Shown piece after piece: positions 11,922 to 56,747 of a DNA stretch of 61,807 nt (the first letter of the stretch is position 1; the number at the start of each line of letters is the position of its first letter). The notes under the pieces are model-generated. The model made no database searches and was not told the DNA's origin. It was given only the letters and a program-made list of their open reading frames with translations. Both the position numbers and the translations under genes were made by a program. This stretch comes from Patescibacteria group bacterium. GTDB taxonomy: Bacteria > Patescibacteriota > UBA1384 > 2-12-FULL-50-11. The stretch lies in the NCBI GenBank assembly GCA_040900165.1, contig JBBDZM010000009.1:18636-80442 (forward strand), read 5' to 3'.

Positions 11922-11927
11922 GGGGAT

Positions 11928-12668: not shown

Positions 12669-12737
12669 CGAACATGATGTCCGTCTGACGAGAATCGTCT
12701 CTAGACAATCATCAAAATAATTATACAAACTATCAAT

Positions 12738-12920: not shown

Positions 12921-12998
12921 TGATAAGTATAGCCAAACCAGATGTGATGTCAATATACAGCTAGTAAAAAAATTGCCAACGGCCATAAGTATTGATAT

Positions 12999-24958: not shown

Positions 24959-27900
24959 ATGGCAAAATCAAAGGATAGCGGTAGGAATATTTCGGACATT
25001 GCCTTAAAACCCGTTGAAATTTCCGTTAATTTACCCACTGATAGAAATGATAAATCATCAAAAAAGACCGGCCTAAAAGTATCTCGCCGTTTCACCAAGC
25101 CCGGTCAGGATGTGTTTGCTTCCGTGGAGTGGGATACTCGCGACTCAATTATCTCGGACGAAAAAGGTAATATTATTTCGCAAATCACCGGTATCGAAGT
25201 ACCAAAAACTTGGACCCAACTAGCCACCGATATTGTTTCCTATAAATATTTCCGCAAAGCCGGTCTGCCAACCAAAGAAGGCCGAGAAACATCCGTCAGA
25301 CAGCCAATTATTCGCATTAGTAAAACCATGGCCGACTTCGGGGAAAAGTTCGGTTACTTTGCCTCCAAAGCCGAGCGGGAGACCTTTGAGACCGAGTTGA
25401 TGTATATATTGCTTCACCAGCGCGCCGCCTTCAACTCGCCAGTTTGGTTTAACTGCGGCCTTTATCATCAATACGGCATTAAAGGTAGTGGGGGATCGTT
25501 CTACTGGAATTTTAAAGAAAATAAGGTTCTAGAGTCCGAATCTGCTTACCGCAACCCTCAATGTTCCGCTTGTTTTATTTTATCGGTCACCGATACCTTG
25601 CCAGGGATTTTTGAGTTAGTAAAAACCGAAGCCCACATCTTTAAATACGGCTCTGGCTCCGGCGCTAACTTTTCGCCGCTACGCAGTCGATACGAAAAAC
25701 TCTCGGGCGGTGGTTACTCCAGTGGGCTATTAAGCTTCTTGCGAGTATTCGATCGGGCCGCCGGTGCTACTAAATCTGGTGGAACAACCAGGCGGGCCGC
25801 TAAAATGGTCGTTGTCGACATTGAGCACCCAGAGATTGAAGACTTTATTGATTGGAAAGTTAACGAAGAGAAAAAAGCCCTGGCCTTAATCGAAGCTGGC
25901 TATGAATCGGACTTTAACGGCGATGCTTACAGTACGGTTTCCGGTCAAAATGCCAACAACTCCGTTCGGGTAACCGACGACTTTATGAAAGCGGTGGAGA
26001 ACGACGGCGAGTGGCAGACCCGTTTTGCCACCAGCGGCGAGCCATACAAGACATACAAAGCCCGGGATTTAATGGATAAAATTGCCCAGGCCGCTTGGAA
26101 ATGCGCCGACCCAGGGCTGCAGTTTGATACCACTATCAACGACTGGCACACTAGTCCAAATACCGATCGAATCTACGCCTCCAACCCTTGCTCGGAGTAT
26201 ATGTTTCTCAACGACTCGGCCTGTAACTTGGCGTCGATCAATTTGGCGAAATTTATTAAGGACGACGGCTCATTTGATATCGCTGGCTATCGCCACGCCT
26301 GCCGGATAATGTTTATTGCCCAGGAAATTGCCGTCGATCTATCCAGCTACCCAACTAATGTAATCGCCAAAAATAGCCACGATTACCGACCGCTTGGATT
26401 GGGTTACGCTAACCTAGGGACGCTGTTAATGCTCCAGGGCGTTCCTTATGACTCGCCAGAGGGCTTTGCCATCGGTGGGGCCTTAACGGCCATTATGACT
26501 GGTCACGCCTATAAAACTTCTGCCGAGATGGCCGCCGTTAAGGGGCCCTTTGAAGGATTCGCTAAAAATCGAGCACCGATGCTTAATGTGATGCGCAAAC
26601 ACCGCTCGGCTGCTTACCGAATTAGCGAAAAGCACTGTCCCACCGACATCTTAGATGCCGCTCACCAGGACTGGGACGAAGCGGTGGCACTGGGAGAACA
26701 GTTTGGCTATCGCAATAGCCAGGCAACGGTGATTGCTCCAACCGGCACGATTGGCCTACTAATGGACTGCGACACGACTGGTGTCGAGCCGGACTTTGCC
26801 CTGGTTAAATTTAAAAAATTAGCTGGTGGTGGATCGATGAAAATCGTTAACAACGCCGTACCAAAAGCACTGGAGAATCTTGGGTACAGCCCATTAGAAC
26901 AACAGGCGATTATCGATTACGCCATCGGTACCGGTACGCTCAACGGCTCAACACCAATTAACGCCGAGAGTTTAAAGGATAAGGGATTAACCCAAGAGGA
27001 GATCGCCAAGCTCGAGAAAACCCTGCCAACAATGTTCGATATCAACTACGCCTTCAATCGAACGGTAATCGACAGTAATCTTTTTGAGAGATTGGGGGTT
27101 ACCAGTGAACAAGAAAACAAGCCGACGTTCTCGCTCCTAAAAAAACTCGGTTTCAGCCAGACAGATATCAATCAAAGCAACGAGATAATCTGTGGCACCC
27201 AAATGCTGGAGGGCGCACCGCATCTCAAAGAAGAACACTACCCAGTCTTTGACTGCGCCAATCGCTGCGGGCCAAACGGCAAGCGTTTTATCCGACCAAT
27301 GGGACACGTCCAGATGATGGCGGCCGTTCAGCCGTTTATTTCTGGTGCAATCTCCAAAACTATTAATATGCCTAACGAGGCAACAGTTGAGGATGTTAAG
27401 GAAGTTTACATTGAGTCATGGAAGCTTGGTATTAAGGCATTAGCTTTGTATCGAGACGGCTCAAAATCTAGCCAGCCACTCAATACCAAGCGCCAAGACG
27501 AAGCAGACGAGCTGGAGGTTAAAAAAGAACAAGTGATCGTCTACAAGCCTCGCCGGCGTCGTCTTAACGACGAGCGCCAAGCACTCACTCATAAATTCAG
27601 TATCGCTGGCCACGAGGGCTATATTACCACCGGTCTGTACGACGACGGGATGCCCGGAGAGATATTCATTACCATGGCCAAGCAAGGGAGCGTTATCTCC
27701 GGCTTAATGGATGCTTTCGCTACCTCGATATCGATTTCTCTCCAATACGGTGTACCGCTCAGTGTGGTTGTTAGAAAATTTGCCAATAGCCGCTTTGAGC
27801 CGTATGGCTTTACCTCCAACCCACAGATTAGGATTGCTAAGTCGATCGTTGATTACCTAGCTCGCTACCTGGGGCTAAAATTCCTATCGCCGGGGGAACT

Positions 27901-28171
27901 CCAAGATATCGGTATCAAATCCGACAGCCAAGCTGCTTCAAGCCAAGCGCCGTTAGAACTCGAGGTTGGTAGCCAGGGGCAATCGGTCCCGATTACCATC
28001 AATGAGAACACTGATAAGACTGAAGATAATACCGACACTGACATCACCCAAGATCAGCCCATCGTCGCCTCTGATGCGCCGCCCTGCCCAACCTGCGGAT
28101 CGATGACCACCAAAACCGGCACTTGCTACACCTGCTTGTCGTGCGGCTCCACCACCGGCGGCTGCAGCTAG
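24959..28171 (+). CDS. nrdJ: Adenosylcobalamin-dependent (class II) ribonucleotide reductase
   Basis: [32 protein letters not shown], C-terminal CPTCGS...[15 protein letters not shown] zinc ribbon and redox tail. Confidence 0.93.
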   Translation: [1070 protein letters not shown]

Positions 28172-28173
28172 TA

Positions 28174-28737
28174 ATGCCTATTTACACAAAGAAGGGGGAC
28201 CGGGGTGAAACCGGTCTTCCTGGCAAAAGACGTCTATCCAAGACGGACCAGCTTTTTGAAGTCTTGGGAAACTTAGATCAAACCAGCGCTTCGATTGGTT
28301 TAGCGCTATCGTACACTGAGAAAAAGGAAAGTGAGTTGATAGCGTTATTGAAATCTGTCCAATCAGACTTTTTGGGGATTGGCGCCTACTTGGCCTCAGA
28401 AAACCACAGCCAGAGGGCAATATTAAATCACCTACCAAAACAAATTACGTTATTTGAGAAAACCATCGACAAACTAGAAAACGAGACAGGTTCGTTGCAG
28501 AATTTTATCCTGCCTGGCGGAGGAAACGCCGGTTCGGCTCTTCACTTAGCCCGAACAATCGCTCGAAAAACCGAACGGGAATTTCATAATTTAACTGGAG
28601 TAAAGTCGCCTGAAATCAGCCAGTACCTCAACCGATTGTCAGACTTACTTTTCCAAATAGCCCGAGCGATTAACCATCGACAGGGTAATGTTGAGGATAA
28701 TTGGAAGTATCTACAAAACAAAGCTGATAATCGTTGA
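28174..28737 (+). CDS. PduO-type ATP:cob(I)alamin adenosyltransferase
   Basis: MPIYTKKGDRGETGL start motif, FILPGGGNAGSALHLARTIARKTER. ATG lies 2 nt after the nrdJ stop. Confidence 0.88.
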   Translation: MPIYTKKGDRGETGLPGKRRLSKTDQLFEVLGNLDQTSASIGLALSYTEKKESELIALLKSVQSDFLGIGAYLASENHSQRAILNHLPKQITLFEKTIDKLENETGSLQNFILPGGGNAGSALHLARTIARKTEREFHNLTGVKSPEISQYLNRLSDLLFQIARAINHRQGNVEDNWKYLQNKADNR

Positions 28738-33409: not shown

Positions 33410-34666
33410 ATGCGTAGAAATTTTTGGATTGGTTTTGTGTTAATTCTTGCCACCATTGGGCTGGCTTTTTACATTAGCCTACCATCGACAACCAGCTTTC
33501 TTGGACGTAGTACGACCATCCGCCAGGGGCTTGATCTCCAGGGCGGTGTCAGGTTGGTTTACCAACTAGACTTGTCTGCTTCAGCTGATGTCGACAAAGC
33601 CGGGGCGATTAGCTCGACCCGGGACGTTATTGAACGACGAGTCAACACTACTGGCGTCGCCGAGCCAGTAATTCAATCGGGTAAGGCCAGCGGTCAAGAG
33701 ACAGTGATTGTTGAGTTGCCTGGCATTAAGGATGTCCAAGAGGCGATTAATTTAATCGGCCAGACTGCTCAACTAGAGTTCAAGGAACAGGATAGTCGTA
33801 ACCCCGACCAGTGGATCAATACCGGCCTAACTGGTAAACAGCTAAAGAATGCGACTGTTTCTTTTGATCCAACAACTAACGCCCCCCAGATCAACTTGGA
33901 ATTTAGTAGTGAGGGAGCGAGCCTATTCGAGGAAATCACCAGCCGAAACGTCGGAAAGCAAGTGGCAACGTTTCTTGACGGCGAAGTCCTCCAGATTGCA
34001 ACAGTTAACGAAAAAATTGCTGGCGGTCAGGCCGTGATTACGGGCCAGTTTACAATTCAAGAAGCTAAGGATTTAGTCAGCCTACTTAACGCCGGAGCCC
34101 TAGATGTACCAATTAAGCTGATCGAACAACGAACCGTTGGGGCAACATTGGGGGAGCAGTCCGTTAAAAACAGTCTGGTTGCCGGAGTAATTGGCTTGTT
34201 ATTAGTAATAATTTTTATGCTCGTCAACTACCGGGTGGCTGGCTTGGCGGCGGTCTTGGCATTGAGTGGTTATGCCGTAATTGTGGTGGCGATGTTTAAA
34301 CTAATTCCGGTCACCATTACTTTGTCGGGCATTGCCGGTTTTATTCTGTCGATCGGTATGGCCGTGGACGCCAATATTTTAATCTTTGAGCGGATGCGCG
34401 AAGAGCTACGCGACGGCAAAAACCTGTCACTGGCGATGGAAGAGGGATTCACGCGGGCTTGGCCGTCGGTACGTGATTCCAATATGGCGACAATTATCAC
34501 CTCGGGAATTCTCTTTTTCACGACAACCGGTTTGGTTAGGGGATTTGCCTTAACTCTAGCGCTGGGTGTTTTGGTCTCTCTCTACAGCTCAATTACTGCC
34601 AGCCGAGCATTCCTGCGACTGTTTGCAATGAACAAATGGCTAGCGAAAGATATGGAGAAAATATAA
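33410..34666 (+). CDS. secD: Protein translocase subunit SecD
   Basis: GLDLQGG motif, C-terminal 6-TM block with AGFILSIGMAVDANILIFER. Confidence 0.92.
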   Translation: MRRNFWIGFVLILATIGLAFYISLPSTTSFLGRSTTIRQGLDLQGGVRLVYQLDLSASADVDKAGAISSTRDVIERRVNTTGVAEPVIQSGKASGQETVIVELPGIKDVQEAINLIGQTAQLEFKEQDSRNPDQWINTGLTGKQLKNATVSFDPTTNAPQINLEFSSEGASLFEEITSRNVGKQVATFLDGEVLQIATVNEKIAGGQAVITGQFTIQEAKDLVSLLNAGALDVPIKLIEQRTVGATLGEQSVKNSLVAGVIGLLLVIIFMLVNYRVAGLAAVLALSGYAVIVVAMFKLIPVTITLSGIAGFILSIGMAVDANILIFERMREELRDGKNLSLAMEEGFTRAWPSVRDSNMATIITSGILFFTTTGLVRGFALTLALGVLVSLYSSITASRAFLRLFAMNKWLAKDMEKI

Positions 34667-35583
34667 TGAGCTACCGCTACTTAGGAAAACGAAAAACTAT
34701 GTGGCTGATTATCTCCGGATTATTGCTAGTACCGGGAATATTGTCGTTGATTTTCTGGAAGTTGCCGTTGGGAATCGATTTCCGTGGAGGTGGTACGGCC
34801 GAATGGCAGTTTGCCAAATCCGTCACGGATCAGCAACTACGAGATACGTTGGGTGAGCAGGGGATTCTCAAGGGATTTTCTGTTTCTAGTTCTGGGGAGG
34901 GAAGCGTTTTTGTCAAATTCTTACCAATTGAGGTAGGGGAGTATCAAAAAAGTTTTGCCACAATTAAAGAAAAGTACGGTCAGGCAACGGAGCTAAAATT
35001 TGAGAACGTCGGTCCAAGTGTCTCCAAAGATTTAACCAAAAAGGCGATTATTGCAGTAGTAATTGCTTCGCTATTTATACTAGTCTATCTCGCCTATTCC
35101 TTCCGGGGAGTTACCTATCCGGTTTCGTCCTGGCGCTTTGGCAGCGTTGCCTTAATTGCCTTGCTTCATGACGTCGCTATATCGATTGGAGTGTTTTCAA
35201 TCCTGGCGCACTTCTTTGGATATGAAGTCGACAGTTCATTTATTACTGCTACCTTAACGATTATGGGATTCTCGGTTCATGACACGATCGTTGTCTTCGA
35301 TAGAATTAGGGAAAACTTGCACGGTAAAAATATCGATACAGCCGAGCAGTTCGAACAGATCGCCGAGTCTTCTCTGGCTCAAACCCTGAACCGCTCGTTA
35401 GGAACCAGTCTAACCCTTATATTCACCTTAGTAGCCCTATTATTGCTTGGCGGACAGACTATTAAACCGTTCGTGCTAATGATGACAGTCGGCGTGGCCG
35501 TTGGAACGTATTCATCGATATTCACCGCCACGCCATTGCTAACAATTTGGCAAAGTAAGATATTTAGCCGAGCAAAAAAGTAG
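34666..35583 (+). CDS. secF: Protein translocase subunit SecF
   Basis: GIDFRGG motif, MGFSVHDTIVVFDRIRE. ATG overlaps the secD stop (TAATG). Confidence 0.92.
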   Translation: MSYRYLGKRKTMWLIISGLLLVPGILSLIFWKLPLGIDFRGGGTAEWQFAKSVTDQQLRDTLGEQGILKGFSVSSSGEGSVFVKFLPIEVGEYQKSFATIKEKYGQATELKFENVGPSVSKDLTKKAIIAVVIASLFILVYLAYSFRGVTYPVSSWRFGSVALIALLHDVAISIGVFSILAHFFGYEVDSSFITATLTIMGFSVHDTIVVFDRIRENLHGKNIDTAEQFEQIAESSLAQTLNRSLGTSLTLIFTLVALLLLGGQTIKPFVLMMTVGVAVGTYSSIFTATPLLTIWQSKIFSRAKK

Positions 35584-35982: not shown

Positions 35983-38913
35983 CTACAGCTCATCAATTGG
36001 CTCAAAATCGTCGTAATTGGTTGGCCTGGCTACGTCCTTGTTTGGCAGTTTCAGGCCTAGTTGGTCGGCTTGTTCCCAGGATATCAACTGTGTTTCATCG
36101 GTTTTCTCTCCCCTATCTCCCCCACTCTGCGGAGTTTCCATGTTATATTTTTCAATCACTTTTTCGGAAAGCGCCGCTGGCGGGCTGATAGTTTCAGTTT
36201 TTTGTTCTGGAGCAATTTCGTCTTTTTTAGCCACTCCCCCATCTTCGAGAGTTCTCTCGATGGGCGTAACACCATACCACTGTCGATCAAACCGGTCTTT
36301 GATAATCTCAATCTTGTTGTTCTTGAGAGTTTCTTTGAGTTTTTCCCCATCCTGATCCTTGGGTTTTGTATCTGAATCCCCCGCCGGCTGGACGAATCGC
36401 TGGGGCTCCTCTTTGGCTGTCGGCGACGTCACTATCCGATCAGTTTCATCTTTGCGTCTGGCTCCCCCACTCTTGCCCGTGCCATCTTCTTCCGACAAAT
36501 TAATTGGCATGGACCATTCAGCGATATAATCCTCAACGTCTGTTCTTGGCGTTGAATAGCTGGCTCGGCTAGCAGCAACAACGGCATCTTTGAGGTTGGA
36601 TTTTTCCTCGGGCGGCGGTAGAGTTCCGGCCGAGAAAGCTGGGACGGTTACCCCATCGATCGCCATTTTGATATAAATCTGCCGATTCGGTAGATTAACT
36701 AAATCGTTAACTTCGAAAATCGGCTCGTATTCTTTCCTGAGAACTTCGGCGTCCGACGCCCCAACCCTAAACGAAATCATTGTTCCAACATTGCCAAAGA
36801 CTGCATTGGCGACAGTTTCCGGCATTTGATTAATATACTGGTTAATCATTACCAAATTTAGCCGGTATTTGCGGGCTTCCGATAGAATTGTCGCGAACGA
36901 ATCGGTGGCAAAGTTCTGAAACTCATCAACGTACAAGTAGAAATCCCGGCGGTTTTGTTCCTCGATATTAGTTCGTCCCATCGCCGCCAACTGGATTTTG
37001 GTAATCAGCATCGAACCCAATAGCGCCGAGTTGTCCTCGCCAATTTTTCCGGTCGACAGATCGGCTAGCAGAATCTTCCCCTCGTCCATAATCTTGCGGA
37101 TATCCATAGTCGTTTTTGGCTGGCCAACAATATTGCGAATAATCGACGACGACAAAAACTGGCCAACCTTGTTTTGAATCGGTGCAATCGCTTCCTGGCG
37201 AAACTTTGGCTCGTATTTTTCATACTCATTCAAAAAGAAGTCTCGTATTACCGGATCCTTGATTGCGTTGACGACTTTTCGGCGGTAAGCATTATCGGTT
37301 AAGACCCGCATTACCCCTAGTAGAGTGGAGTTTGGATAATCAAGTAGAGCGATAATAGCGTTGCGTAAAATATACTCCAGCCGCGGGCCCCAACTCTCGC
37401 CGAAGATTTTCTTAAAAATACCGACCACTCCAGAGGCGATAATATTCTGAACTTCTGGCTCAACGTTCTCCAGCACGTTAAACCCAATCGGGAAGTCCCG
37501 ATCAGCTGGGTTGAAATAAACCACATCTTGAACCCGATCTTCGGGAATAAAATTCAGCACGTGGTCGATTAATTCGCCGTGCGGATCGACCACGGCGACG
37601 CCGCGGCCTTCGCGGATATCGTCAAATATCATATTCTCCATCAGCGTCGATTTTCCGGTGCCGGTTTTACCGATAATATAGCTATGTAGTCGCCGGTCTT
37701 GTTTTTTAATCCCAAATTTACGGACGCTATTGCGGAAGTTGGTTTGAGCAAAGACCGTTAGTTCATCGGCCGCAACGGATCCAACCACCGGCAAGTTGGC
37801 AGGCGGTTCCCCTTTCTTCGACCCCGCCCAAGCAATGGTTGGGGTAGTAACGGTTTCGGACGGGAAATGAAAGATCGAAGCCAACTCGGTAATATTCAAC
37901 AACAGAGCCGCATCCCCTACTACGCGGTTGCGATACAGCTCGAGCGCCGCCTTATCATCGCTAATCGCCGATGTAACAAAAGAGTTAATATTTATTGAGT
38001 TAAATTGTTTGTATCCACCAATCACCTGCTCAAGCTTGGCCTTGGCCGAGAACGAGTCTGGCGCTACCGCCACCAAACGAATTGTCGCCTCAAAGCCGAG
38101 CTTGGTGATTTTTTCCTCAACCCCCTTAAGAGCTTGTTGAACCGGTCCGCTTAACTCTTTGCCTTTGTCATCCTTTTTCTTTTTGTCATCTGGTAACGGT
38201 TTGGCCGCGCCGGTAAAAACCGAGCTGAAAAAATCACCGCCTAAATTTTTTAGCTCGTTGGCAACTAGCGATACTGGACCACTGCTTTTGGCGGGCGGTT
38301 CTTTGATATTTTTTACTTCCTTCTCCCCTTCTTCCTGCCAAGAGTCGTCGATCGGTTTAATAATAATTTGCGACCAAACCTCTTCGTTATCACCGGTCGA
38401 GCTAAGTACTCCCGTAATTGCCGAAAGCGGGTCGACCTCAAAATTCACAAAAGTCTTAATCGGGTAAACCCGGGGCTTGCTGAAATGGAGCTCGCTGGCA
38501 GCAATGGCCATTTCTGGCTCTACCACAGCGTAGTCATGCTCTAACTCCTCGACATCTATCGTTGGGTACTGGGCGTAAATCTGGCTCAAAACAAAATCAC
38601 GCAAACGCTTGGGAACGTGAAAATAAAATTTTATTGCTCGGTGATGCGAGACAATCTCCAGCGATACTTGCGGTTGGTTAGTAGTGTCGGAGCGATAAAT
38701 ACCGTGGAGGGCGGCAAACATCTGCTCGGCCGCTAACGGTGTTTTCTCGTTATTGCGCGGCACCGATATCGATAATATCGAATACTCATCGGGTAGTGCC
38801 AGACCACCGTCAACTGTTCGATTTTTTAGTTTTCGAGTCTGTTGCCAGAAAAATAATGCGCCCAACAAAAACAAAGCGGTGAAAATGATATTAATTAGTG
38901 TGAAATAATTCAT
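35983..38913 (-). CDS. Membrane-anchored FtsK/HerA/TraD-superfamily P-loop ATPase, paralog 2, with a long disordered C-terminal tail
   Basis: N-terminal TM helix. About 350-aa N-domain shared with the upstream paralog (DPLSAIT, GFEATIRL, ELASIFHFP). Walker A IIGKTGTGKST at 37648-37675, VVDPHGEL, Walker B LYVDEFQNF. About 180-aa Lys/Glu/Asp-rich tail. Confidence 0.8.
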   Translation of the reverse strand: MNYFTLINIIFTALFLLGALFFWQQTRKLKNRTVDGGLALPDEYSILSISVPRNNEKTPLAAEQMFAALHGIYRSDTTNQPQVSLEIVSHHRAIKFYFHVPKRLRDFVLSQIYAQYPTIDVEELEHDYAVVEPEMAIAASELHFSKPRVYPIKTFVNFEVDPLSAITGVLSSTGDNEEVWSQIIIKPIDDSWQEEGEKEVKNIKEPPAKSSGPVSLVANELKNLGGDFFSSVFTGAAKPLPDDKKKKDDKGKELSGPVQQALKGVEEKITKLGFEATIRLVAVAPDSFSAKAKLEQVIGGYKQFNSININSFVTSAISDDKAALELYRNRVVGDAALLLNITELASIFHFPSETVTTPTIAWAGSKKGEPPANLPVVGSVAADELTVFAQTNFRNSVRKFGIKKQDRRLHSYIIGKTGTGKSTLMENMIFDDIREGRGVAVVDPHGELIDHVLNFIPEDRVQDVVYFNPADRDFPIGFNVLENVEPEVQNIIASGVVGIFKKIFGESWGPRLEYILRNAIIALLDYPNSTLLGVMRVLTDNAYRRKVVNAIKDPVIRDFFLNEYEKYEPKFRQEAIAPIQNKVGQFLSSSIIRNIVGQPKTTMDIRKIMDEGKILLADLSTGKIGEDNSALLGSMLITKIQLAAMGRTNIEEQNRRDFYLYVDEFQNFATDSFATILSEARKYRLNLVMINQYINQMPETVANAVFGNVGTMISFRVGASDAEVLRKEYEPIFEVNDLVNLPNRQIYIKMAIDGVTVPAFSAGTLPPPEEKSNLKDAVVAASRASYSTPRTDVEDYIAEWSMPINLSEEDGTGKSGGARRKDETDRIVTSPTAKEEPQRFVQPAGDSDTKPKDQDGEKLKETLKNNKIEIIKDRFDRQWYGVTPIERTLEDGGVAKKDEIAPEQKTETISPPAALSEKVIEKYNMETPQSGGDRGEKTDETQLISWEQADQLGLKLPNKDVARPTNYDDFEPIDEL

Positions 38914-41315
38914 CGGGTTGCCTGAACCTTTCGGCCGTATTTTTGACGACTAGCATTTTTAATCCAAATCGCCATTTCCTGGCTGCCGGCATTGGGGCTT
39001 TTTACCCCACGCATATTAAAGGGTTTGGACGGTTTCAAATCAATTAGAAGCTTAACATACGCCTGAAATCTATCAAGATTGGTTAAGTCCTCGGCGCTAA
39101 CGCCCGGCAGCTCGTGAGTCAGAAATTCGGCATCTTCGGCACCAATCCGGTAGCTAATTAGCGTTCCCACGTTACCAATCACAGCATCGCGGACGTTCTC
39201 TGGTAGTTGGGCAAAATATTGGTTGGTGATATTCAAGTTAAGCCGGTATTTTCGGGCTTCCGCTAAAATTGTCGCAAAGGTATTAGTAGTGAAGTTTTGG
39301 AACTCGTCTACATACATATAGAAGTCCTGGCGTTGCTCTTCCGGCAGATCGGCCCGGCTAAAGGCAGCTACTTGCAGTTTTGAGACCAAGATTAGCCCAA
39401 GTAGATTGGCGTTGATGTCGCCGATTTTGCCTTTGGCTAAGTTTACAAAGAGAATTTTTTTATCATCCATAATATTGCGAAAATTAAACGACGACGTCGG
39501 TTGGCCAATAATATTGCGCATTAAATCATTAGTCATAAACCGACCAAATTTGGAGATAAAATAGTTGTACATCTCCGATTTGTGGAAATCGGCGGTCTTA
39601 GCCAATTGTTGCTGCCAAAAGGCCTTAACAGCTGGATCGGCGACATTGGCAATCGCCTGTTCCCGAAAAGCATCGTCCGTAAACAATCTCGGCAGATCGA
39701 TAATCGTTCCACCCCCTGGTTGAGCCATGACCGTCAACGCCGCGTTACGGGCCCAGTGCTCCCACTGCGGTCCAACAATACCGGTGCGATTGGGGTCGAA
39801 TAACTTATAGAAAATTTCGATTACTTCCTGAATAAGAAAATCGCGCTCCTCGGGTTTTGAAAACTCCAGCAAGTTTAGACCCAGCGGAAAACTGGTGTCG
39901 CTAGGATCAAAAAGGATTACATCGTTCGCCCGGTGGGTTGGCACTTTGGCGATTAAGCTCTCAATCGCATCACCAAGTGGATCGATAAAACAGAGCCCGC
40001 GGCCGTTGTGCATATCCTGCTCGATCATCGTCTCAAAGAGCGTAGTTTTACCAGTACCAGTTTTACCGATCATAAATAGGTGCCGGCGCCGGTCGTCGTC
40101 TTTAAGCCGCACCAGTTTGTTAATATCCCGATAAGCCGATTCCCCAATTACCACCCCAGCTGGTGGCAGATTTTCCGGGGCCGGTAAGGTTTTAGACATC
40201 TCCCACTTGAGCCCCGGCGTTTCCAGTAAACGGTTGGGCAGATGAAAAATGCTCGAAATTTCTTCGACGTTTAAGATCATCTTGGGGGCACCCGCAAACA
40301 TTCTCAGTAGGTACTGTCGAGCAATGTTGTCGGACTTGGCTTTTTTATATTTAAAAGAATTAAACTGCGGTGAGTAAAACTGGGAGAACCCGGAAATTAG
40401 CGCCATCAGATTCCCCTCGGCTTCGGCGGAATTTTGGCCAGTTGCAATAAGGCGAATAATTGTTTCGAAGCCGGTTTTTGACGACTTTTCTTCCAACCCT
40501 TTCATCACCTGCTCTTGCTGGGGGGTGTATTGCCGCGGTTTATTTGAATCAATTTGTTGGGTCGATGGTTGTTTAACAGTATTGGCAATATTACCGGCGA
40601 TTCGGCCAGCCGTTGATTGATTAACTAAATGCAGTTTATTTTCGGCCGCGTTTTGGGTGGCAATGTTACTGTGAATTCGCCAGGATTCGCTAATTGGCCT
40701 AATCAACATCTGCAAACCGACACCGGCATCGTTATTAACTTTGGTCATTACTGTTGTGATCGCGCTCAACGGATCGGCATCCATTGTCCGGTAGGTCTTA
40801 ATCGGCAAGACAAAATTCTTGGCTTGTTCCATCACCGCCCCGGCAATGGCCGGGTTTGACATCGAGAAAATCGGTGGCGGGCTGGCGTAATGGACTTCGG
40901 CGGTGGGAAAGTAGCTGTGCAGCTGGCGTTCAACGATAGATTTAATGCGCTTCGGGCAAACAATTGAAAATTGAATCGACCCGCCAACCGAGCTAATCTC
41001 AAAACTAATATGGGCTGGGGTACTAAATAGCCAGTCAATAAAATGCCGCTGGTGGATAATTGTCGTCAACGAGGCAAAAAACTGCTCCATCGGCGAAATT
41101 AAGTCTTTAAAATCCTGCCCTCCCTTATTTTGCTCGGCCGCAGTTTTGGCGCTTTCTTTGGGGATTGCTACCACCAAGCAAACCAACGATTTAACATCGG
41201 CAACGGTATCTTTTTTCTGAAACAATCTGAAAAACAGCATCAACCCAGCTGGTATAACAACCACTAAGGATAATATTAAATAAAGCGCAAATGTTGGGAC
41301 GCTATCAAGCAGCAT
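38910..41315 (-). CDS. Membrane-anchored FtsK/HerA/TraD-superfamily P-loop ATPase, paralog 1
   Basis: TM helix. N-domain motifs DPLSAIT, GFETIIRL, EISSIFHLP. Walker A MIGKTGTGKTT, FIDPLGD, Walker B MYVDEFQNF. Its stop overlaps the paralog 2 start (ATGA). Confidence 0.8.
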   Translation of the reverse strand: MLLDSVPTFALYLILSLVVVIPAGLMLFFRLFQKKDTVADVKSLVCLVVAIPKESAKTAAEQNKGGQDFKDLISPMEQFFASLTTIIHQRHFIDWLFSTPAHISFEISSVGGSIQFSIVCPKRIKSIVERQLHSYFPTAEVHYASPPPIFSMSNPAIAGAVMEQAKNFVLPIKTYRTMDADPLSAITTVMTKVNNDAGVGLQMLIRPISESWRIHSNIATQNAAENKLHLVNQSTAGRIAGNIANTVKQPSTQQIDSNKPRQYTPQQEQVMKGLEEKSSKTGFETIIRLIATGQNSAEAEGNLMALISGFSQFYSPQFNSFKYKKAKSDNIARQYLLRMFAGAPKMILNVEEISSIFHLPNRLLETPGLKWEMSKTLPAPENLPPAGVVIGESAYRDINKLVRLKDDDRRRHLFMIGKTGTGKTTLFETMIEQDMHNGRGLCFIDPLGDAIESLIAKVPTHRANDVILFDPSDTSFPLGLNLLEFSKPEERDFLIQEVIEIFYKLFDPNRTGIVGPQWEHWARNAALTVMAQPGGGTIIDLPRLFTDDAFREQAIANVADPAVKAFWQQQLAKTADFHKSEMYNYFISKFGRFMTNDLMRNIIGQPTSSFNFRNIMDDKKILFVNLAKGKIGDINANLLGLILVSKLQVAAFSRADLPEEQRQDFYMYVDEFQNFTTNTFATILAEARKYRLNLNITNQYFAQLPENVRDAVIGNVGTLISYRIGAEDAEFLTHELPGVSAEDLTNLDRFQAYVKLLIDLKPSKPFNMRGVKSPNAGSQEMAIWIKNASRQKYGRKVQATR

Positions 41316-41607
41316 CGTTTTGCGTTTCGTGTTCTTGGGCACTTGTTTCCATTTGGCTAGCAAGTTGGGCCTGTAGCTCTACAGCCGGTGGGTTCTCGGT
41401 CCCACTAACAACCGCCGATAAGTCATAGTGTTTTGGTTGCTCGGCTGGGGCACTCTGGGCTTGATCGGGATGGGGGGTATTATGCTCTGGGGCTTGTTCA
41501 ACTGTTTTCTCGGTGTGAGAAAATGTTGTTGACAGTTCGCCACCGTCAACACGTGGCGCTTCGAATTGCTCCGAACCGTTCGGTAGTAGATCTCCCCTCT
41601 CAACCAT
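41305..41607 (-). CDS. Small acidic, low-complexity hypothetical protein
   Basis: 100-aa ORF overlapping the start of paralog 1 by 11 nt. Compositionally disordered, weak RBS. Confidence 0.35.
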   Translation of the reverse strand: MVERGDLLPNGSEQFEAPRVDGGELSTTFSHTEKTVEQAPEHNTPHPDQAQSAPAEQPKHYDLSAVVSGTENPPAVELQAQLASQMETSAQEHETQNDAA

Positions 41608-41642: not shown

Positions 41643-42773
41643 CTAAATTTTCAGATATTGAGCATACTTTTGTTTGAACGAACCGTCGTTAATTGCCAGG
41701 CGAATTTGGCGCATCAGCTCCAATAGAATATGAACATTATGATAGCTTAGTGCCCTGGCCGAATTAATCTCGTTGGCCAGATAGAGATGACGCAGATACG
41801 AGCGCGAAAATGTCCGGCAGGTTTGGCAGGCGCAGTCCGGATCGAGCGGCTGGTCGTCGTCGGTGTATTGGGCGGCGTCAATGCTTTTGCGTGAGAAATC
41901 TTTGGTTAGCCAGAACGAGCCGTGACGGGCGTAACGGGTGGGAATAACGCAGTCGAACATATCCATACCTTTATCGACCATCCGAATTAAATCCACCGGC
42001 TCCCCTACTCCCATCAAATAATGGGGGCGGGCCTTGTCTAAAAGTGGCGCGACGAAATCGACCGCTTTGTTCATTAAATCCTTCCCCTCCGACTCAATCG
42101 CCACTCCCCCAACAGCAATGCCGTCGAATGGGCGTGATTGGATAGAATTAAGCGATTCCAGACGATGCTCCTTAGAGAGTCCACCTTGGATAATCCCGAA
42201 TAATGCCCTCCCCTGCTCCCCCATTTTTTGTTCATGCCAATAATTTATCGACCGCTCGGCCCAGCGCGCTGTACGGTTTATAGCATCACGGGAGCGCATT
42301 ATTGTTGCCTCAATAGGCGGGCAATCATCCAAAACCATGGCGATATCGCTGCCCAGCTTGGATTGAATATCTAATACCCCCTCCGGCGTAAAAGTTAATT
42401 TTTTACCGTCTAGGTGAGATTGAAAGGTTACCCCATCAACAGTAGTTTTAGCCGTCTTTAGACGGGTCGAGCCAAGTGAATACGCTTGATAGCCGCCAGA
42501 GTCAGTTAGAATTGGTTTGTTCCAAGCGCTCCATTTCTGCAGACCGCCGTGCTTGGCGATTAAGTCCTCGCCCGGCCGCAGGTGCAAATGATAGGTATTG
42601 CCTAAAATTATCTCGCTGCCTAGTTGCTCCAATTCCCAAGGCATCAGACCGCGAACGGCGCCGTAGGTGCCAACCGGCATAAACACCGGGGTCTGGATTG
42701 TCCCGTGCGGCGTCTCCAGCTCTCCCGTGCGCGCTAGCGAATCAGCGAGCGTTTTGCTAACGGTGAATTTCAT
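41643..42773 (-). CDS. tgt: tRNA-guanine transglycosylase (queuine tRNA-ribosyltransferase)
   Basis: TPVFMPVGT, LTDSGGYQ, FDCVIPTRYARHG, zinc motif CxCxxC (CACQTC). Confidence 0.93.
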   Translation of the reverse strand: MKFTVSKTLADSLARTGELETPHGTIQTPVFMPVGTYGAVRGLMPWELEQLGSEIILGNTYHLHLRPGEDLIAKHGGLQKWSAWNKPILTDSGGYQAYSLGSTRLKTAKTTVDGVTFQSHLDGKKLTFTPEGVLDIQSKLGSDIAMVLDDCPPIEATIMRSRDAINRTARWAERSINYWHEQKMGEQGRALFGIIQGGLSKEHRLESLNSIQSRPFDGIAVGGVAIESEGKDLMNKAVDFVAPLLDKARPHYLMGVGEPVDLIRMVDKGMDMFDCVIPTRYARHGSFWLTKDFSRKSIDAAQYTDDDQPLDPDCACQTCRTFSRSYLRHLYLANEINSARALSYHNVHILLELMRQIRLAINDGSFKQKYAQYLKI

Positions 42774-43928: not shown

Positions 43929-44033
43929 CGCTTCGCGTCATCTCACGGCTCGCCGCCCCGGCGAGCCGTTCTCTTTTGCGCCCAAAAATCGTATCCTAGT
44001 AGGAGTTTGGTCTTTACCAACTAGGTGTCCACT

Positions 44034-44864
44034 ATGATTGAAAGACTTAAAAAACAACTATCATTGCGCGATGAAGAAACAGGAGAATTCAAGTATGGAA
44101 AGTTCTTCGCATTCTACATTGTGCAATACGCCCTCTTTGTCGCTCTTGGCTTGTCCGTTTTCTCGTCATGGGAAAACACATTCCAATCGCCTTGGTACAG
44201 CTACGTCGCCTGGTTCGTCGGAACCCACTTCGTCCTCTCCGGATTTGAGTGGGGATACCACCGCTACCTGCTTCATACCGTTGTTGCTAGATGGTTTAAA
44301 TCCCAGTGCGAGGCTCATACCCTGCACCACAGCCACACAGACGTAACAACGATCAAGAACCAATACGAGATCCGTCACTCCCATCAAAACGAGGCAGCCA
44401 CATTCCCTGTGTATGCCCTTTCAGCGTTCTGCGCTGTGTTCACGCCCCTGATTTGGGGACTGCAGTATCTACTTCCCGCCGCGCCAGTAATTATTGGCGG
44501 ATACTCAGGAGTAATGTTCTCTTTGGTTCTTTACGAGGTGTACCACGCCGTAATGCACCTGGAGTACGATAGGTACTGGCGTAGATGGGTGGAAAAATTC
44601 CACTTGGTTCGCCAGCTCTACGGCTTTCATCTGATGCATCATGCCAGCATTCGGATTAATCAGGCCATCGGAGGGTTCTTCTTCCTGCCAATATGGGACT
44701 GGGTATTCGGGACATACTTTGTACCGACCAGCAGTCTTCCGTTGCCAGGTCAGGAGCTACCCCAGCCTATTCCCAAGCCTCCACCAGCAAGGTGGTTAAC
44801 AAGGAAACTGGACAAGATTACCAACAACGCCCAAAAACGTGTTGTGCTCAAATCCAGGCCCTAG
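44034..44864 (+). CDS. Fatty acid hydroxylase / sterol desaturase superfamily membrane protein
   Basis: Histidine boxes HRYLLH, HTLHH, HAVMH and HLMHH in a polytopic membrane protein. Confidence 0.75.
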   Translation: MIERLKKQLSLRDEETGEFKYGKFFAFYIVQYALFVALGLSVFSSWENTFQSPWYSYVAWFVGTHFVLSGFEWGYHRYLLHTVVARWFKSQCEAHTLHHSHTDVTTIKNQYEIRHSHQNEAATFPVYALSAFCAVFTPLIWGLQYLLPAAPVIIGGYSGVMFSLVLYEVYHAVMHLEYDRYWRRWVEKFHLVRQLYGFHLMHHASIRINQAIGGFFFLPIWDWVFGTYFVPTSSLPLPGQELPQPIPKPPPARWLTRKLDKITNNAQKRVVLKSRP

Positions 44865-44971: not shown

Positions 44972-45967
44972 CTAGAACCAAGCGTTCCCTTGCTGTGGAC
45001 CGCCGACGCGAATATTCTTGCCGCCGGTTACACCCTCATAGGCAGTGTCGAACCCTCTAACCACGTTGTGCTTAACTACGTTTCCGGTCCCGTCGTTAAA
45101 TACTCCGTAATCACCGTGTGCTCCATCTTCCCCTTCGTCAAAGACCCGATTATTGGAGATGTTACTGTCGTTGGCGAAACCGTAGATCCCAACGTCCGAA
45201 TTACCACGAATGTTGTTAAAGCGCACTTCGGCGCCGTCAACATCAAACAGTAAAATGGCCGTGGCCGAAAAGCTGCTCGCCCCCAACCATTGATTACCCA
45301 TGACCTGATTGTGTTGAATTGTGCCGATCGCTCCAAAGCCCAACTGGATGCTGTTAGCCGCCAAGTTTGCTTGAGTGGCTGATTGGCCGATTTGGTTGTG
45401 AGCGATTAAGACTTCTACATCGCCGTTAGCGACGATGCCGCTCTTTTGAAAACCGTCGAGTGAGTTGAACATCACATCCACACTCATTGTGTTTGGATGA
45501 GTACCGTCGAACGGAGCGTTGCGTACCTCAATGGCGTTACCTTCCTGGCAACCACTCGCCCCTTTGTTAATACCGTTAACCGTGTTGTTAACGATCGAGC
45601 CGCTGGCGCCGTCAAAGAGAATGCCGCGCAGCCGGTTATCGGTTGGCGCGCCCGGTTTGCAGGTGTTTATTAACCCACTAACCGTAACATTGAGATTTCG
45701 GACTCGGGCTTCATCACCGTCGTTTTTGACCACGGCGCCGTTAAAGCCGCCCGGGGCATCAATGCCCGTAATAGTGAACCCTTGGCCGTCGAGCATCATC
45801 CCATCCGGAATTACAATTGTTGAGTCGGTTGTGCAGTCGGCGTCCAAATACATTACGTCGCCAACCGTCGTGAACGAACAGGTTGTTACTGCATGTGCCA
45901 AACCAACCCAGACAAACGACGCCGCTACTAGCGGAAGTGCTGTTAGAATTATTGTCAGTTTTTTCAT
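44972..45967 (-). CDS. Secreted right-handed parallel beta-helix repeat protein
   Basis: Signal peptide MKKLTIILTALPLVAASFVWVGLAHA follows aggagg. Repeated N-x-hydrophobic-x-G-N rungs (IVNNTVNGIN, IAHNQIG, IQHNQVMGN, ISNNRVFD, VKHNVVRG). Confidence 0.75.
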   Translation of the reverse strand: MKKLTIILTALPLVAASFVWVGLAHAVTTCSFTTVGDVMYLDADCTTDSTIVIPDGMMLDGQGFTITGIDAPGGFNGAVVKNDGDEARVRNLNVTVSGLINTCKPGAPTDNRLRGILFDGASGSIVNNTVNGINKGASGCQEGNAIEVRNAPFDGTHPNTMSVDVMFNSLDGFQKSGIVANGDVEVLIAHNQIGQSATQANLAANSIQLGFGAIGTIQHNQVMGNQWLGASSFSATAILLFDVDGAEVRFNNIRGNSDVGIYGFANDSNISNNRVFDEGEDGAHGDYGVFNDGTGNVVKHNVVRGFDTAYEGVTGGKNIRVGGPQQGNAWF

Positions 45968-46076
45968 CTGTCTCACCTCCTTCCCCACTTTTTATCGTTG
46001 CTACTGCGACCGTAGTTGTTGAGATTAGCGATGTCAATATAAATTGGCCGCGGTTGAAAAACCGCGGCCAGTCTTG

Positions 46077-53460: not shown

Positions 53461-54237
53461 CTAGCGTGAACCAGAGCCGGAGCTGCCACCACCGCCTCCA
53501 CCGGCTGCCCCGGAAGAACCGGAGCCGCCCGAGCCGGATGTACCGGCGCCGGAGGTCGGGGTTACAGCGGTTGAGGACGTGCTGGCCGCGGCGGCGGCTG
53601 CCGCTGCAGCAGCGCCGTAACCGTTAGCGCTGACGCGCGAGTTGTTGAACGAGAACCCTGGGATCCCGTTGAGGACCGGTGTGATGACCGTTGGCGGTGC
53701 CATCTGCCCGACATAGCTGATCTGCGACCCGTGGATAAAGACGGGCAGCCATCGATCAACGTAATCTGTCTTGTATTCGGTCCTGTACTCGACCGGACCG
53801 GGTACGTCGACCCTGTAGGGTACTGGGATGTACTCGGTATCGCCCTTGATCTTGATGATCTTATCTCGCTCGACGATTTTTTCTTTCTCCACAACAACCC
53901 GAATCAAATCGGTCCAGTTGCCGCAAGCAAGAATCACTAGGCGATTGTATTCGTCCCAGGCCGCCCAAGTCCCGGCTTTGTGCCATTGGGGCTTGGTGTG
54001 CTCACCGTTGGCGCCATACATCGCCGTATAGACGTCCTCGGGTAACTGGAACGGTGTCCAACCACGCGCTTTTGCCTGCTCCGGCGTAACGCCACCCTTA
54101 ATCATCGGGTTGCGGCCGTAGGTCGCATACTTGCGCTGGGAAGGGTTAGTCAGGTCGGGGTTTTGGGCAAAGCCCATCACCCCGAGAACGACGAGAAGAA
54201 CTATGGCGGCAAGCCGCCCTTTTGCTGTGTGTTTCAT
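53461..54237 (-). CDS. Secreted hypothetical protein with a poly-Ala and Gly/Ser-rich C-terminal tail
   Basis: Signal/anchor RLAAIVLLVVLGVMGFA. Tail AAAAAAAAAASTSS...GGGGGGSSGSGSR. Its ATG overlaps the upstream stop (ATGA). Confidence 0.65.
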   Translation of the reverse strand: MKHTAKGRLAAIVLLVVLGVMGFAQNPDLTNPSQRKYATYGRNPMIKGGVTPEQAKARGWTPFQLPEDVYTAMYGANGEHTKPQWHKAGTWAAWDEYNRLVILACGNWTDLIRVVVEKEKIVERDKIIKIKGDTEYIPVPYRVDVPGPVEYRTEYKTDYVDRWLPVFIHGSQISYVGQMAPPTVITPVLNGIPGFSFNNSRVSANGYGAAAAAAAAAASTSSTAVTPTSGAGTSGSGGSGSSGAAGGGGGGSSGSGSR

Positions 54238-56616: not shown

Positions 56617-56747
56617 ATTCACTCCAATCCACCTGCATATATAAATGTAGGCGCGTTGGAGAGAACAAGATGTTAAGGTTCGGCCGCTTTTGGGAGATTG
56701 CTCATTAGACGCAACCCTCACAGCCGTGTCCGTTCATTAGACGGCAC

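Follow-up and report, generated by a model that had tools for sequence, protein, structure and literature searches.

Paralogous DUF8128 ATPases of Patescibacteria combine a type IV coupling protein-like motor with an N-terminal domain of predicted VirB4-like fold

Two adjacent genes in the core chromosome of a Patescibacteria (CPR) MAG, here called A and B, encode paralogous membrane-anchored ATPases whose motor is a homolog of the type IV coupling proteins (T4CPs; TrwB/VirD4) by both sequence and fold. The two paralogs represent two deep clades that span the phylum, and their N-terminal domain is predicted to fold like the one at the N-terminus of VirB4. We propose that A and B form a hetero-oligomeric membrane-anchored motor that probably works on DNA and is not strictly dependent on a type IV secretion system (T4SS), a reading to which we give about an even chance.

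Both genes are located on the reverse strand of the stretch of DNA that was analysed (61,807 nt, hereafter the window). Gene B (35983..38913, −) encodes a B-clade DUF8128/T4CP-like ATPase of 976 aa from an ATG start, and gene A (38910..41315, −) encodes its A-clade counterpart, which starts at the ATG at 41315 and has 801 aa. With the TTG at 41363 as an alternative start, A would be a protein of 817 aa (38910..41363). The NCBI call for A is 776 aa; its start falls inside the TM helix, and it is probably too short. The 801 aa start agrees with the 799–804 aa called in relatives. The ATGA at 38910-38913 contains both the stop codon of A and the start codon of B, which bears out the proposed translational coupling. 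The tgt gene (41643-42773, −) lies upstream, and SecD and SecF (33410-35583, +) are encoded downstream of B in convergent orientation. The ORFs of the window that were searched with Pfam yielded only housekeeping families and none of the VirB, pilus, relaxase or competence families (the scan covered part of the ORFs, and several gave no Pfam match). To this extent, the picture of a locus flanked by tgt and secDF and free of secretion and conjugation genes holds. The housekeeping synteny around A and B comprises tgt, secDF, rluA, addA and ribosomal protein genes and is kept down to ~51% identity. In the window's lineage, the AddA-type helicase-nuclease is encoded a few genes past SecDF.

A and B are true paralogs, as originally predicted, with 37% identity over 703 aa in BLASTP (E 9e-153). 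The aligned part includes the N-domain that they have in common; compared alone, the two N-domains are 30% identical. All motifs listed in the original prediction are present in both proteins: DPLSAIT, GFE(A/T)(T/I)IRL, E(L/I)(A/S)SIFH(F/L)P, GKTGTGK(S/T)T, (V/I)DP(H/L)G(E/D) and YVDEFQNF. Walker A reads GKTGTGKTT in A (40041..40067, −) and GKTGTGKST in B (37645..37671, −), and the Walker B region is YVDEFQNF at 39291..39314 (−) in A and at 36910..36933 (−) in B. The columns of the Walker A lysine and of the Walker B D and E are invariant across both paralog groups. Orthologs of A are 799–833 aa long and carry PF26449 and PF10412.

A hydropathy scan detected one hydrophobic segment in each protein, located at the extreme N-terminus and followed by basic residues, which is in good agreement with the single TM helix proposed for each. 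In A this segment (SVPTFALYLILSLVVVIPAGLMLFF; 41229..41303, −), the only one above threshold, is followed by RLFQKK. By the positive-inside rule, this implies that the N-terminus of A is outside and that the bulk of the protein is cytoplasmic. In B the helix (YFTLINIIFTALFLLGALFFW; 38845..38907, −) is followed by QQTRKLKNR, and the AlphaFold model has a long helix at residues 2–35; B is taken to have the same topology as A.

The motor of B (36544..37761, −; ~aa 385–790) is a nucleotide-binding domain interrupted by an all-alpha domain (37126..37458, −; aa 486–596), for which seven helices are predicted between Walker A and Walker B, at the place where T4CPs have their all-alpha domain. It matches the Pfam families TrwB_AAD_bind, DUF87, T4SS-DNA_transf and TraG-D_C. 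With a cut-off of 20.5 bits, TrwB_AAD_bind (PF10412) scores 34.9 bits in B and 26.0 bits in A, and the Pfam and NCBIfam matches of A and B point to T4CP families. DotL and TrwB are the sequence matches of the motor in the PDB, and hhalign aligned 270 columns with TrwB (96.8% probability, E 2e-10). The full-length AF2 model of B (pLDDT 88.8) was matched to TrwB by Foldseek with a TMt, normalised to TrwB, of 0.62–0.68 and an rmsd of ~4.5 Å over ~415 columns, thus spanning ~415 of the ~420 residues of TrwB-deltaN70. The best match of the full-length model by E-value was TrwK (~880–900 columns), with a TM of only ~0.3 because the domain orientation differs. The assignment of the P-loop core to the FtsK-HerA/type IV coupling protein type is therefore confirmed.

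The N-domain of B (37762..38790, −; ~aa 42–384) is an alpha/beta domain belonging to PF26449 (DUF8128). In precomputed Pfam assignments, this family is given to the identical proteins P0001 and P0121 and to all of the 240 homologs listed; searched with a Pfam copy that lacks the DUF8128 model, the N-domains of A and B gave no match even at E 10. The AF2 model of the N-domain (pLDDT 89.8) includes a low-confidence charged insert at ~aa 205–255. When this model was compared with the PDB using Foldseek, TrwK/VirB4 accounted for each of the top 13 matches (E 1e-5 to 4e-4, probability 1.0, TMq ~0.4) and was the only PDB protein matched. At the level of sequence profiles no likeness to the VirB4 N-domain was detected (profile-profile probability 0.2% in hhalign). 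As the likeness is structural, with a TMq of only ~0.4, it could conceivably reflect convergence on a common alpha/beta fold. The description of this domain as uncharacterised in the original prediction has to be revised, since it is already a Pfam family and its AlphaFold model resembles, in the PDB, only the N-terminal domain of VirB4/TrwK. In ~20 loci B is encoded by two ORFs, one for the N-domain and one for the ATPase. Together with the bimodal lengths of the DUF8128 clusters, this indicates that the N-domain is an autonomous module.

A and B resemble T4CPs (TrwB of R388, VirD4, TraD, Cag-beta and DotL) in the motor, Walker A and B, the all-alpha insertion and the membrane anchor, and TraD and DotL have a C-terminal extension, as does B. 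However, the T4CP membrane domain consists of two TM helices that lead straight into the nucleotide-binding domain, whereas A and B have one TM helix and a cytoplasmic DUF8128 domain of ~350 aa between anchor and motor. We therefore do not consider them standard VirD4 proteins. They also differ from T4CPs in being two old paralogs with core-chromosome synteny that are near-universal in one phylum, and linkage to relaxase (Dtr) or T4SS (Mpf) genes was seen neither in those window ORFs that were searched with Pfam nor in the cassettes of relatives. By their predicted structure they share with VirB4 (TrwK of R388) the order of an N-terminal alpha/beta domain followed by an FtsK-HerA-type ATPase, and having a TM helix fused to this is reminiscent of the known fusions of VirB3 with VirB4. 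In contrast, the motor resembles VirD4 more closely than VirB4, and the genes are not found beside VirB3, VirB6 or VirB8. Searches with Pfam and NCBIfam VirB4 models gave no match above threshold (NCBIfam yielded only far-sub-threshold P-loop matches), and the full-length hhalign comparison with TrwK gave a probability of 1.2%.

Three other ATPase families were considered and rejected. FtsK/SpoIIIE proteins have a multi-pass membrane domain, unlike the single TM helix seen here, and no FtsK_SpoIIIE Pfam match was obtained. For HerA, a DUF87 match was found in B alone (33 bits), HerA structures ranked below TrwK and TrwB, and no NurA-like neighbour was found. Matches to mad8 of MADS defence are limited to the ATPase core, and the neighbours are housekeeping genes. 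A parallel in gene arrangement is offered by TrsD, which is related to the N-terminal part of VirB4 and encoded next to virB4 (PMC12102498). In MPF-FATA/patescibacterial T4SSs, TrsD is thus a free-standing protein encoded beside an ATPase gene, which parallels the separate DUF8128 N-domain and ATPase ORFs of the ~20 CPR loci. The families and loci are different, though, and DUF8128 genes do not adjoin virB4.

In a neighbour-joining tree A and B fell into two deep clades, and ~30 contig sizes were common to the match lists of A-orthologs and B-orthologs. The cassette tgt-small ORF-A-B-secFD is kept across one broad lineage, in relatives down to ~51% identity, and the start/stop overlap of A and B is kept only in close relatives. 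In other lineages genes are inserted between A and B, the paralogs are separated, or B is split. Conserved pairing thus applies to the broad lineage of the window but is not universal. SecD/SecF are encoded beside B in 14 loci; these come from several lineages and show two different arrangements. In Saccharibacteria B adjoins dprA-topA in place of SecDF, at loci that also contain the dcw cluster. Both the dprA-topA and the SecDF neighbourhoods may be inherited synteny without functional meaning.

NCBI names A and B 'type IV secretion system DNA-binding domain-containing protein', and the family is almost certainly among the T4CP homologs surveyed by Quinonero-Coronel et al. (2025; PMC12102498). 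In that survey 5,713 VirD4-type T4CP homologs were found in 2,918 of 3,035 Patescibacteria genomes (96%), which is ~2 per genome, compared to VirB4 in 2,417 genomes; 148 of the 5,713 were near virB4. The authors suggest that the homologs may be exapted, and report that in S. epibionticum the t4cp homolog is non-essential and the T4SS genes are essential (PMC12102498). The Se T4SS has been described as lacking a recognisable coupling protein (Wang et al., 2023). Given the NCBI name, the Pfam family and the 2025 survey of T4CP homologs of this kind (PMC12102498), the pair is not the undescribed system that it had been taken for. DUF8128 and the near-universal presence of T4CP homologs in Patescibacteria were already known. 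New are the deep A and B clades, the conserved cassette, the separation of the paralogs or splitting of B in other lineages, and full-length homologs in Bacillus phages beside a relaxase-family gene.

These homologs, which include the DUF8128 N-domain, are found in the lytic Bacillus phages SPO1 (gp27.4) and G (gp156). They were detected by tblastn (E 1e-20 and 2e-51, respectively) and by the DUF8128 profile (E 1e-28 and 1e-42), and gp156 matched B in BLASTP with E 4e-58, although identity between the phage and patescibacterial proteins is only 20–24%. The gene for SPO1 gp27.4 overlaps that for gp27.3, a Replic_Relax (relaxase-family) protein, and Pathria et al. (2012; PMC3357382) described the two genes as a phage 'DNA translocation operon'. 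The coupling ATPases of these operons (SPO1 gp27.4, 0305phi8-36 orf201 and phage G gp156; PMC3357382) are true full-length homologs of A and B. In phage G the gp156 gene follows in tandem that of gp155, a second, VirB4-like T4SS-type ATPase. The phage proteins differ from A and B in lacking the N-terminal TM helix, and their linkage to a Replic_Relax gene has no counterpart in the window or the CPR loci, where we found no Replic_Relax homolog and, near the CPR A and B genes, no relaxase or nickase homolog. Like the patescibacterial t4cp homolog, the phage genes are reported to be non-essential in the laboratory, and they occur without a T4SS.

The C-terminal tail of B (35986..36543, −; aa 791–976) is rich in Glu, Asp and Lys, as the original prediction had it; its net charge is −16 and it is probably disordered. 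It varies by lineage and is basic in Saccharibacteria. Two short motifs are conserved within it. Motif 1 (LISWEQADQLGL; 36052..36087, −), with the consensus LI[TS]W[DE]xA[DE]xLG, was found in nearly all of 59 inspected B-orthologs. Motif 2 (DDFEPIDEL; 35986..36012, −), with the consensus [DE][FL]xP[IL][DE]E[LI], is located at or near the C-terminus of B-orthologs.

In the reading that we favour, A and B would co-assemble at the membrane as a hetero-oligomeric ring or as stacked rings, as suggested by their translational coupling and paralogy; VirB4, VirD4, FtsK and HerA all form hexamers. ATP hydrolysis would thread a polymer through the ring, and this is most probably DNA, to which the relaxase-family gene beside the phage homologs points, as may the dprA-topA neighbours of B in Saccharibacteria and the AddA-type gene beyond SecDF. 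Homology of the motor does not in itself fix the substrate, since the T4CPs of effector-translocating systems move proteins. The VirB4-like N-domain could serve in membrane-proximal oligomerisation or docking, and the tail of B, acidic and carrying two conserved motifs, could recruit a partner or adaptor. We lean towards a role, such as DNA uptake, export or segregation, for which the patescibacterial T4SS encoded elsewhere is not strictly needed.

A possible but doubtful explanation is that A and B serve the patescibacterial MPF-FATA-like T4SS as its coupling proteins (VirD4 equivalents), recruiting its substrates to the channel, with genes that are remote from the virB4 cluster. Both sequence and fold mark the motor as a T4CP homolog, VirB3, VirB6 or VirB8-like partners could offer a docking site for the VirB4-like N-domain, and the tail motifs of B are similar in concept to the adaptor-binding tails that TraD and DotL have. 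Nearly all Patescibacteria have a chromosomal T4SS and their t4cp genes are often remote from virB4 (PMC12102498). The original prediction had itself set a standard VirD4 of a T4SS split across loci against its own proposal; the family almost certainly belongs to the surveyed homologs that are mostly far from virB4, so a split locus may apply, but an N-terminal architecture unlike that of VirD4 does not fit the standard protein. A coupling role in the T4SS is also at odds with the Se T4SS having no recognisable coupling protein (Wang et al., 2023), with the t4cp homolog being non-essential when T4SS genes are essential, and with the number of genomes that have T4CP homologs, which exceeds the number with VirB4 by at least 500 (PMC12102498). 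The phage homologs work without any T4SS. Going further than our preferred reading, DUF8128 could be a third branch of T4SS ATPases, a living intermediate between VirB4 and VirD4 with the N-domain of the former and the motor of the latter. A and B would then be a T4SS-free, phylum-wide DNA pump, from which Bacillus phages borrowed the motor along with a relaxase. They might for instance be a cytoplasmic DNA-uptake motor, a role taken by ComFA elsewhere, or move DNA across the epibiont-host contact. We regard this as unlikely.

That the pair instead translocates or sorts proteins (effectors or envelope proteins), maybe together with the Sec machinery, seems improbable. SecD/SecF adjoin B in 14 loci with two arrangements, and Cag-beta and DotL, both among the structural or sequence matches, handle proteins. 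However, the SecDF link could be inherited synteny, and in Saccharibacteria its place is taken by dprA-topA and the dcw cluster. Beside A and B there are no conserved candidate substrate genes, and the relaxase-family partner of the phage relatives points to DNA. T4CP homology and the occurrence of homologs in phages could also suggest that the pair is left over from an integrated conjugative element or a prophage, and PADLOC mad8 matches (E 1e-15 to 1e-18), with weaker HerA matches on the ATPase domain, that it is part of an anti-phage defence centred on a HerA/mad8-like ATPase. The PADLOC matches cover the generic P-loop core only, the window contains no integrase, relaxase or other mad genes, and the base composition of the region shows no anomaly. 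Such an origin is very improbable, and largely refuted by housekeeping synteny that persists to ~51% identity and by deep clades distributed across the phylum.

A large proportion of uncultured bacteria are Patescibacteria. They depend on host cells, and the machines that transport macromolecules across their envelope are a central question. A motor present in ~96% of genomes, usually in two copies, is among their most conserved lineage-typical components. A VirB4-like front on a VirD4-like motor, two old paralogs with co-translation in at least one lineage and relaxase-linked phage relatives turn the label 'T4CP homolog' into testable hypotheses, namely a hetero-oligomer, a DNA substrate and T4SS independence, and Saccharibacteria are now genetically tractable. 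The DUF8128 architecture also bears on the divergence of VirB4 and VirD4.

The small acidic ORF that had been noted to overlap the start of A is present at 41305..41607 (−). It encodes 100 aa rich in P/Q/E/S/T/A with a net charge of −14. Between its stop and the ATG of A there is an overlap of 11 nt, and the apparent operon begins with it. In five relatives (loci L081, L082, L083, L086 and L087) the tgt-A interval holds an ORF of 95–150 aa with a net charge of −13 to −16 and no Pfam match. The position of the small ORF is thus kept in relatives, while its sequence is barely conserved.

The three closely packed minus-strand ORFs of interest are a small acidic ORF (41305–41607, 100 aa), gene A (38910–41315, 801 aa from its ATG) and gene B (35983–38913, 976 aa), the latter two encoding paralogous ATPases. 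Between the small ORF's stop and the ATG of A there is an 11-nt overlap, and A ends and B begins within a shared ATGA; both overlaps had been predicted. A TTG at 41363 would extend A to 817 aa, and the NCBI model starts it at an internal Met within the transmembrane (TM) helix, giving 776 aa. The gene calls of relatives agree with a start at the ATG at 41315. A and B share 37% identity across 703 aa (E 9e-153), and the N-terminal 400 aa fall within the match. All motifs listed in the original prediction were found in both proteins, and the catalytic motifs are intact in each. The single N-terminal TM helix proposed for each corresponds to the one hydrophobic segment per protein, located at the far N-terminus and followed by basic residues. 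The positive-inside rule thus predicts that most of A and of B lies in the cytoplasm.

The C-terminal half of A and B is a type IV coupling protein (T4CP) motor. TrwB_AAD_bind scored above its Pfam cut-off in both proteins, and B alone also matched DUF87, T4SS-DNA_transf and TraG-D_C. NCBIfam returned TraD/VirD4-type matches, every one far under the family cut-off. The only solved structures reached by sequence were DotL and TrwB, the VirD4 equivalent of R388. For the family profile, the match to R388 TrwB had a probability of 96.8% (E 2e-10, 270 columns) and that to TrwK, the VirB4 equivalent, one of 1.2%. These domain-wise HMM searches are in agreement with the FtsK-HerA/T4CP type originally assigned to the core.

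The N-domain (~350 aa), described in the original prediction as uncharacterised, is in fact catalogued as Pfam PF26449 (DUF8128, a name that we also use for the whole family). In NCBIfam and a Pfam copy without the DUF8128 model, the N-domains of A and B gave no match even at E 10, and no sequence relatives were found outside DUF8128. A profile of 357 DUF8128 sequences compared with one of the VirB4 N-domain (TrwK and 17 homologs) gave 0.2% probability, the VirB4 profile being thin because the last homolog search yielded only 30, often truncated, VirB4 sequences. The AlphaFold model of the N-domain is confident (pLDDT 89.8, pTM 0.81), and its 13 best PDB matches in Foldseek were TrwK/VirB4 chains (E 1e-5 to 4e-4, probability 1.0), the next hits, at E > 3e-3, being ferredoxin-like or FAD-oxidase folds of a generic kind. 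Structure prediction, which had been proposed as a check, thus yielded VirB4/TrwK as the best fold in the PDB but without a VirB4 match in sequence, and the likeness of the modelled N-domain to VirB4 is probable at the fold level only.

For the full-length model (pLDDT 88.8) the best E-value was to TrwK, over ~880–900 columns spanning both domains, with a TM score of only ~0.3 because the domain orientation differs; Cag-beta and HerA came after TrwB. The motor aligned with nearly the whole length of TrwB (TMt 0.62–0.68, rmsd ~4.5 A) and therefore includes the all-alpha domain. From the motor, N-domain and full-length matches we infer a predicted architecture of a TM helix, a VirB4-N-domain-like fold and a VirD4-type motor, which differs from that of standard VirD4 and from that of VirB4.

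The N-domain model matched predicted structures of Bacillus phage proteins far better than TrwK, namely gp156 of phage G (E 6e-23, TMq 0.58) as well as phage G gp155 and proteins of phages JL and Slash. Using tblastn, homologs were detected in 64 phage genomes, of which 59 belong to Bacillus phages, including phage G gp156 (aa 63–797, E 2e-51) and SPO1 gp27.4 (E 1e-20); the DUF8128 profile matched the two with E 1e-42 and 1e-28, respectively. The phage homologs are full-length but lack the N-terminal TM helix. In SPO1 (L089, 5236–8773) gp27.4 overlaps gp27.3, a Pfam Replic_Relax (relaxase-family) protein, and in phage G (L088, 4240–8382) gp155, a VirB4-type P-loop_TraG protein, is followed in tandem by gp156. 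SPO1 27.3/27.4 and 0305phi8-36 orf200/201 have been described as a "DNA translocation operon", made up of a relaxase and a coupling ATPase and dispensable in the laboratory (Pathria et al., 2012; PMC3357382). No gp27.3 homolog was found in the window or in the loci of CPR relatives. SPO1, phage G and 0305phi8-36 are without a full T4SS, which argues that DNA can be a substrate of a DUF8128/T4CP-like motor in the absence of such a system.

For B, over 4,300 homologs were scored, and A has its own ortholog set, distinct from that of B. A-type proteins are ~800–830 aa long and B-type proteins ~870–1,050 aa, and all orthologs of both types carry PF26449 and PF10412. Among GTDB species genomes, the family was detected in Saccharibacteria and in Peregrini-, Gracili-, Dojka-, Buchanan-, Uhr-, Falkow-, Nomura-, Doudna-, Lipton-, Moranii- and Abawacabacteria. 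Searching 1.84 billion representatives with a profile built from both N-domains retrieved 3,311 clusters (50% identity); in these DUF8128 is always N-terminal, and the lengths are bimodal (~350–500 aa and ~800–1,130 aa). A neighbor-joining tree of the fused proteins, drawn without bootstrap support, consists of an A-clade and a B-clade with many distant members in each. The A/B paralogy is old. The two clades fit the 5,713 VirD4-type T4CP homologs reported in 2,918 of 3,035 Patescibacteria genomes (Quinonero-Coronel et al., 2025; PMC12102498); VirB4 occurs in 2,417 of the 3,035.

In the part of Table S3 of that survey that we consulted, T4CP-type hits lie 1–11 genes apart in eight genomes, which is at most suggestive of A/B pairing across the phylum. 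The same part shows that the T4CP count mixes two profiles, t4cp1 and t4cp2, and that many genomes have, in addition to near-adjacent pairs, further singleton t4cp1 hits; the T4CP-like proteins of Patescibacteria may thus be of several kinds. Our literature searches found no mention of DUF8128 or PF26449. Based on the surveys and these searches, the family is already catalogued and counted, and the description of its domain architecture and paralog structure is, as far as we could find, new. The suggested undescribed system is therefore a member pair of a catalogued, phylum-wide and uncharacterised family of the T4SS ATPase kind.

Relatives with B at 60–73% identity have an identical cassette in the order His_Phos, tgt, small ORF (95 aa), A, B, convergent SecF and SecD, RluA and AddA, with an A/B overlap of 4 nt or 1 nt. 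This order is kept at ~51% identity. A and B are separated by a 60-nt gap in L087, by a gene of 175 aa in L086, by two genes (the one seen in L086, here 175–187 aa, and one for a Sigma70_r4/HARE-HTH protein) in L001, L016 and L075, and by SecDF in L059, where A lies 6 kb upstream of B. In most Saccharibacteria loci a B-type gene, without an A-type gene, is seen within 10 kb; the order there is dprA, topA, HTH protein, B and then a divergent dcw cluster; of these neighbors Pfam confirmed DprA only, and the rest were named from reading the sequences. The cluster (L005–L008 and others, e.g., L006 5720–22000) comprises ftsQ-like, murG, ftsW, mraY, ftsI, ftsL-like and rsmH.

Other CPR groups include ~20 loci in which the B-type gene is divided between two ORFs 0–30 nt apart, one for the N-domain (DUF8128; ~425–490 aa) and one for the ATPase (~500–990 aa) (L019, L025, L030, L031, L045, L046, L053, L059, L061, L062, L064, L069–L073, L076, L079; ~10000–13000 where the flank is full). 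This is too consistent across loci for a sequencing error, and the N-domain is therefore a separable module. The proposed pairing across relatives thus holds for the cassette down to ~51% identity, but other lineages separate A and B or split B; A–B linkage is common, and translational overlap is confined to the closer relatives of the window.

The conserved 170–187-aa protein encoded between A and B in some relatives (L016 8256–8819; L075 5366–5878; L001 8083–8610; L086 8465–8992) has no Pfam match and is absent from the window. The Sigma70_r4/HARE-HTH protein (~330–375 aa; L016 8843–9883; L075 5859–6920; L001 8791–9771; L005 8805–9839; L006 8806–9909; L059 8647–9774; L072 8737–9822; L047 8422–9456) is conserved in several CPR lineages, where its gene directly precedes the B-type gene, and could be a dedicated regulator; tblastn found no homolog in the window. 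A ~350-aa ORF that clustered with the DUF8128 family turned out to be this unrelated protein, the link probably being an ORF-calling fusion artifact of clustering. Its relationship to the phage relaxase gp27.3 was rejected as well (hhalign 0.1%).

In the window, tgt and a histidine phosphatase gene lie upstream of the ORFs, and SecD/SecF lie convergently downstream, followed by RluA and an AddA-type helicase-nuclease, consistent with the tgt and secDF flanks noted originally. The rest of the window encodes MreB, NusA, a Clp ATPase, DinB, CCA-adding enzyme, FtsA, FtsZ, a class II ribonucleotide reductase, ribosomal proteins L1 and L10, Pth, a release factor, CysRS and a TopA homolog, assigned via similarity to the topA cluster. 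The predicted lack of VirB-like, pilus, relaxase and competence genes was borne out, as no T4SS, pilus, relaxase or competence genes were seen among the Pfam-scanned ORFs of the window. Scans of the window for tRNAs and Rfam families gave no matches, and consensus scans for promoters and terminators of the operon found fewer sites than in shuffled sequence, an uninformative outcome. GC content is uniform over the region, which together with the conservation of flanks and cassette in relatives speaks against a mobile element. We rejected this reading and that of a defence system, and regard both as extremely improbable.

Domain composition, intact catalytic motifs, membrane anchor, operon-like packing and cassette conservation were treated as established. 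In the model that we propose, A and B would co-assemble at the membrane as a hetero-oligomeric ring, through which ATP hydrolysis would push a polymer, most likely DNA; the VirB4-like N-domain would serve in membrane-proximal assembly or docking, and the C-terminal tail of B would recruit a partner. We give this overall picture an even chance. A plain T4CP would fit the TrwB-like motor; only 148 of the 5,713 surveyed homologs lie near virB4, and in S. epibionticum the t4cp homolog is non-essential and the T4SS genes are essential (PMC12102498), the Se T4SS being without a recognisable coupling protein (Wang et al., 2023; PMC10633639). We consider the plain T4CP unlikely, and a protein-export role distinctly less probable still. 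We favor a role of A and B that is not strictly tied to a T4SS; the survey authors state that T4CP exaptation "cannot be ruled out" (PMC12102498). Three features merit follow-up, namely the VirB4/VirD4 hybrid architecture, the link to phages and the old pair of paralogs; with the genetics available for Saccharibacteria the question can be tested.

The tail of B, predicted as a charged stretch of about 180 aa, is 186 aa long and acidic (net charge -16); in Saccharibacteria it is basic. In this lineage its end has two conserved short motifs, LI[TS]W[DE]xA[DE]xLG and the terminal [DE][FL]xP[IL][DE]E[LI]. Conserved motifs within a disordered tail suggest that it docks a partner. In five relatives the slot between tgt and A holds an ORF of 95–150 aa with a net charge of -13 to -16, rich in P, Q, E, S, T and A, without a Pfam match and hardly alignable among relatives. 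The small ORF probably encodes a genuine acidic protein that is disordered and evolves fast; that it acts as a regulator or DNA mimic is speculation.

The secD/secF genes adjoin the B-type gene in the window (33410–35583, plus strand) and in 14 related loci, in two arrangements depending on lineage: downstream and convergent in one, upstream and codirectional in the other. Inherited synteny or a functional link may account for this. The class II (B12-dependent) ribonucleotide reductase has a TSCPD domain and is followed by a cobalamin adenosyltransferase (24959–28737, plus strand), a pair also found in the relative L081. Six ORFs of 253–461 aa were without Pfam matches at E 1e-3 or 1e-4 (15035–16420 and 44025–44864 on the plus strand; 44972–45988, 53461–54237, 54234–55412 and 55960–56721 on the minus strand) and may encode CPR-specific proteins.
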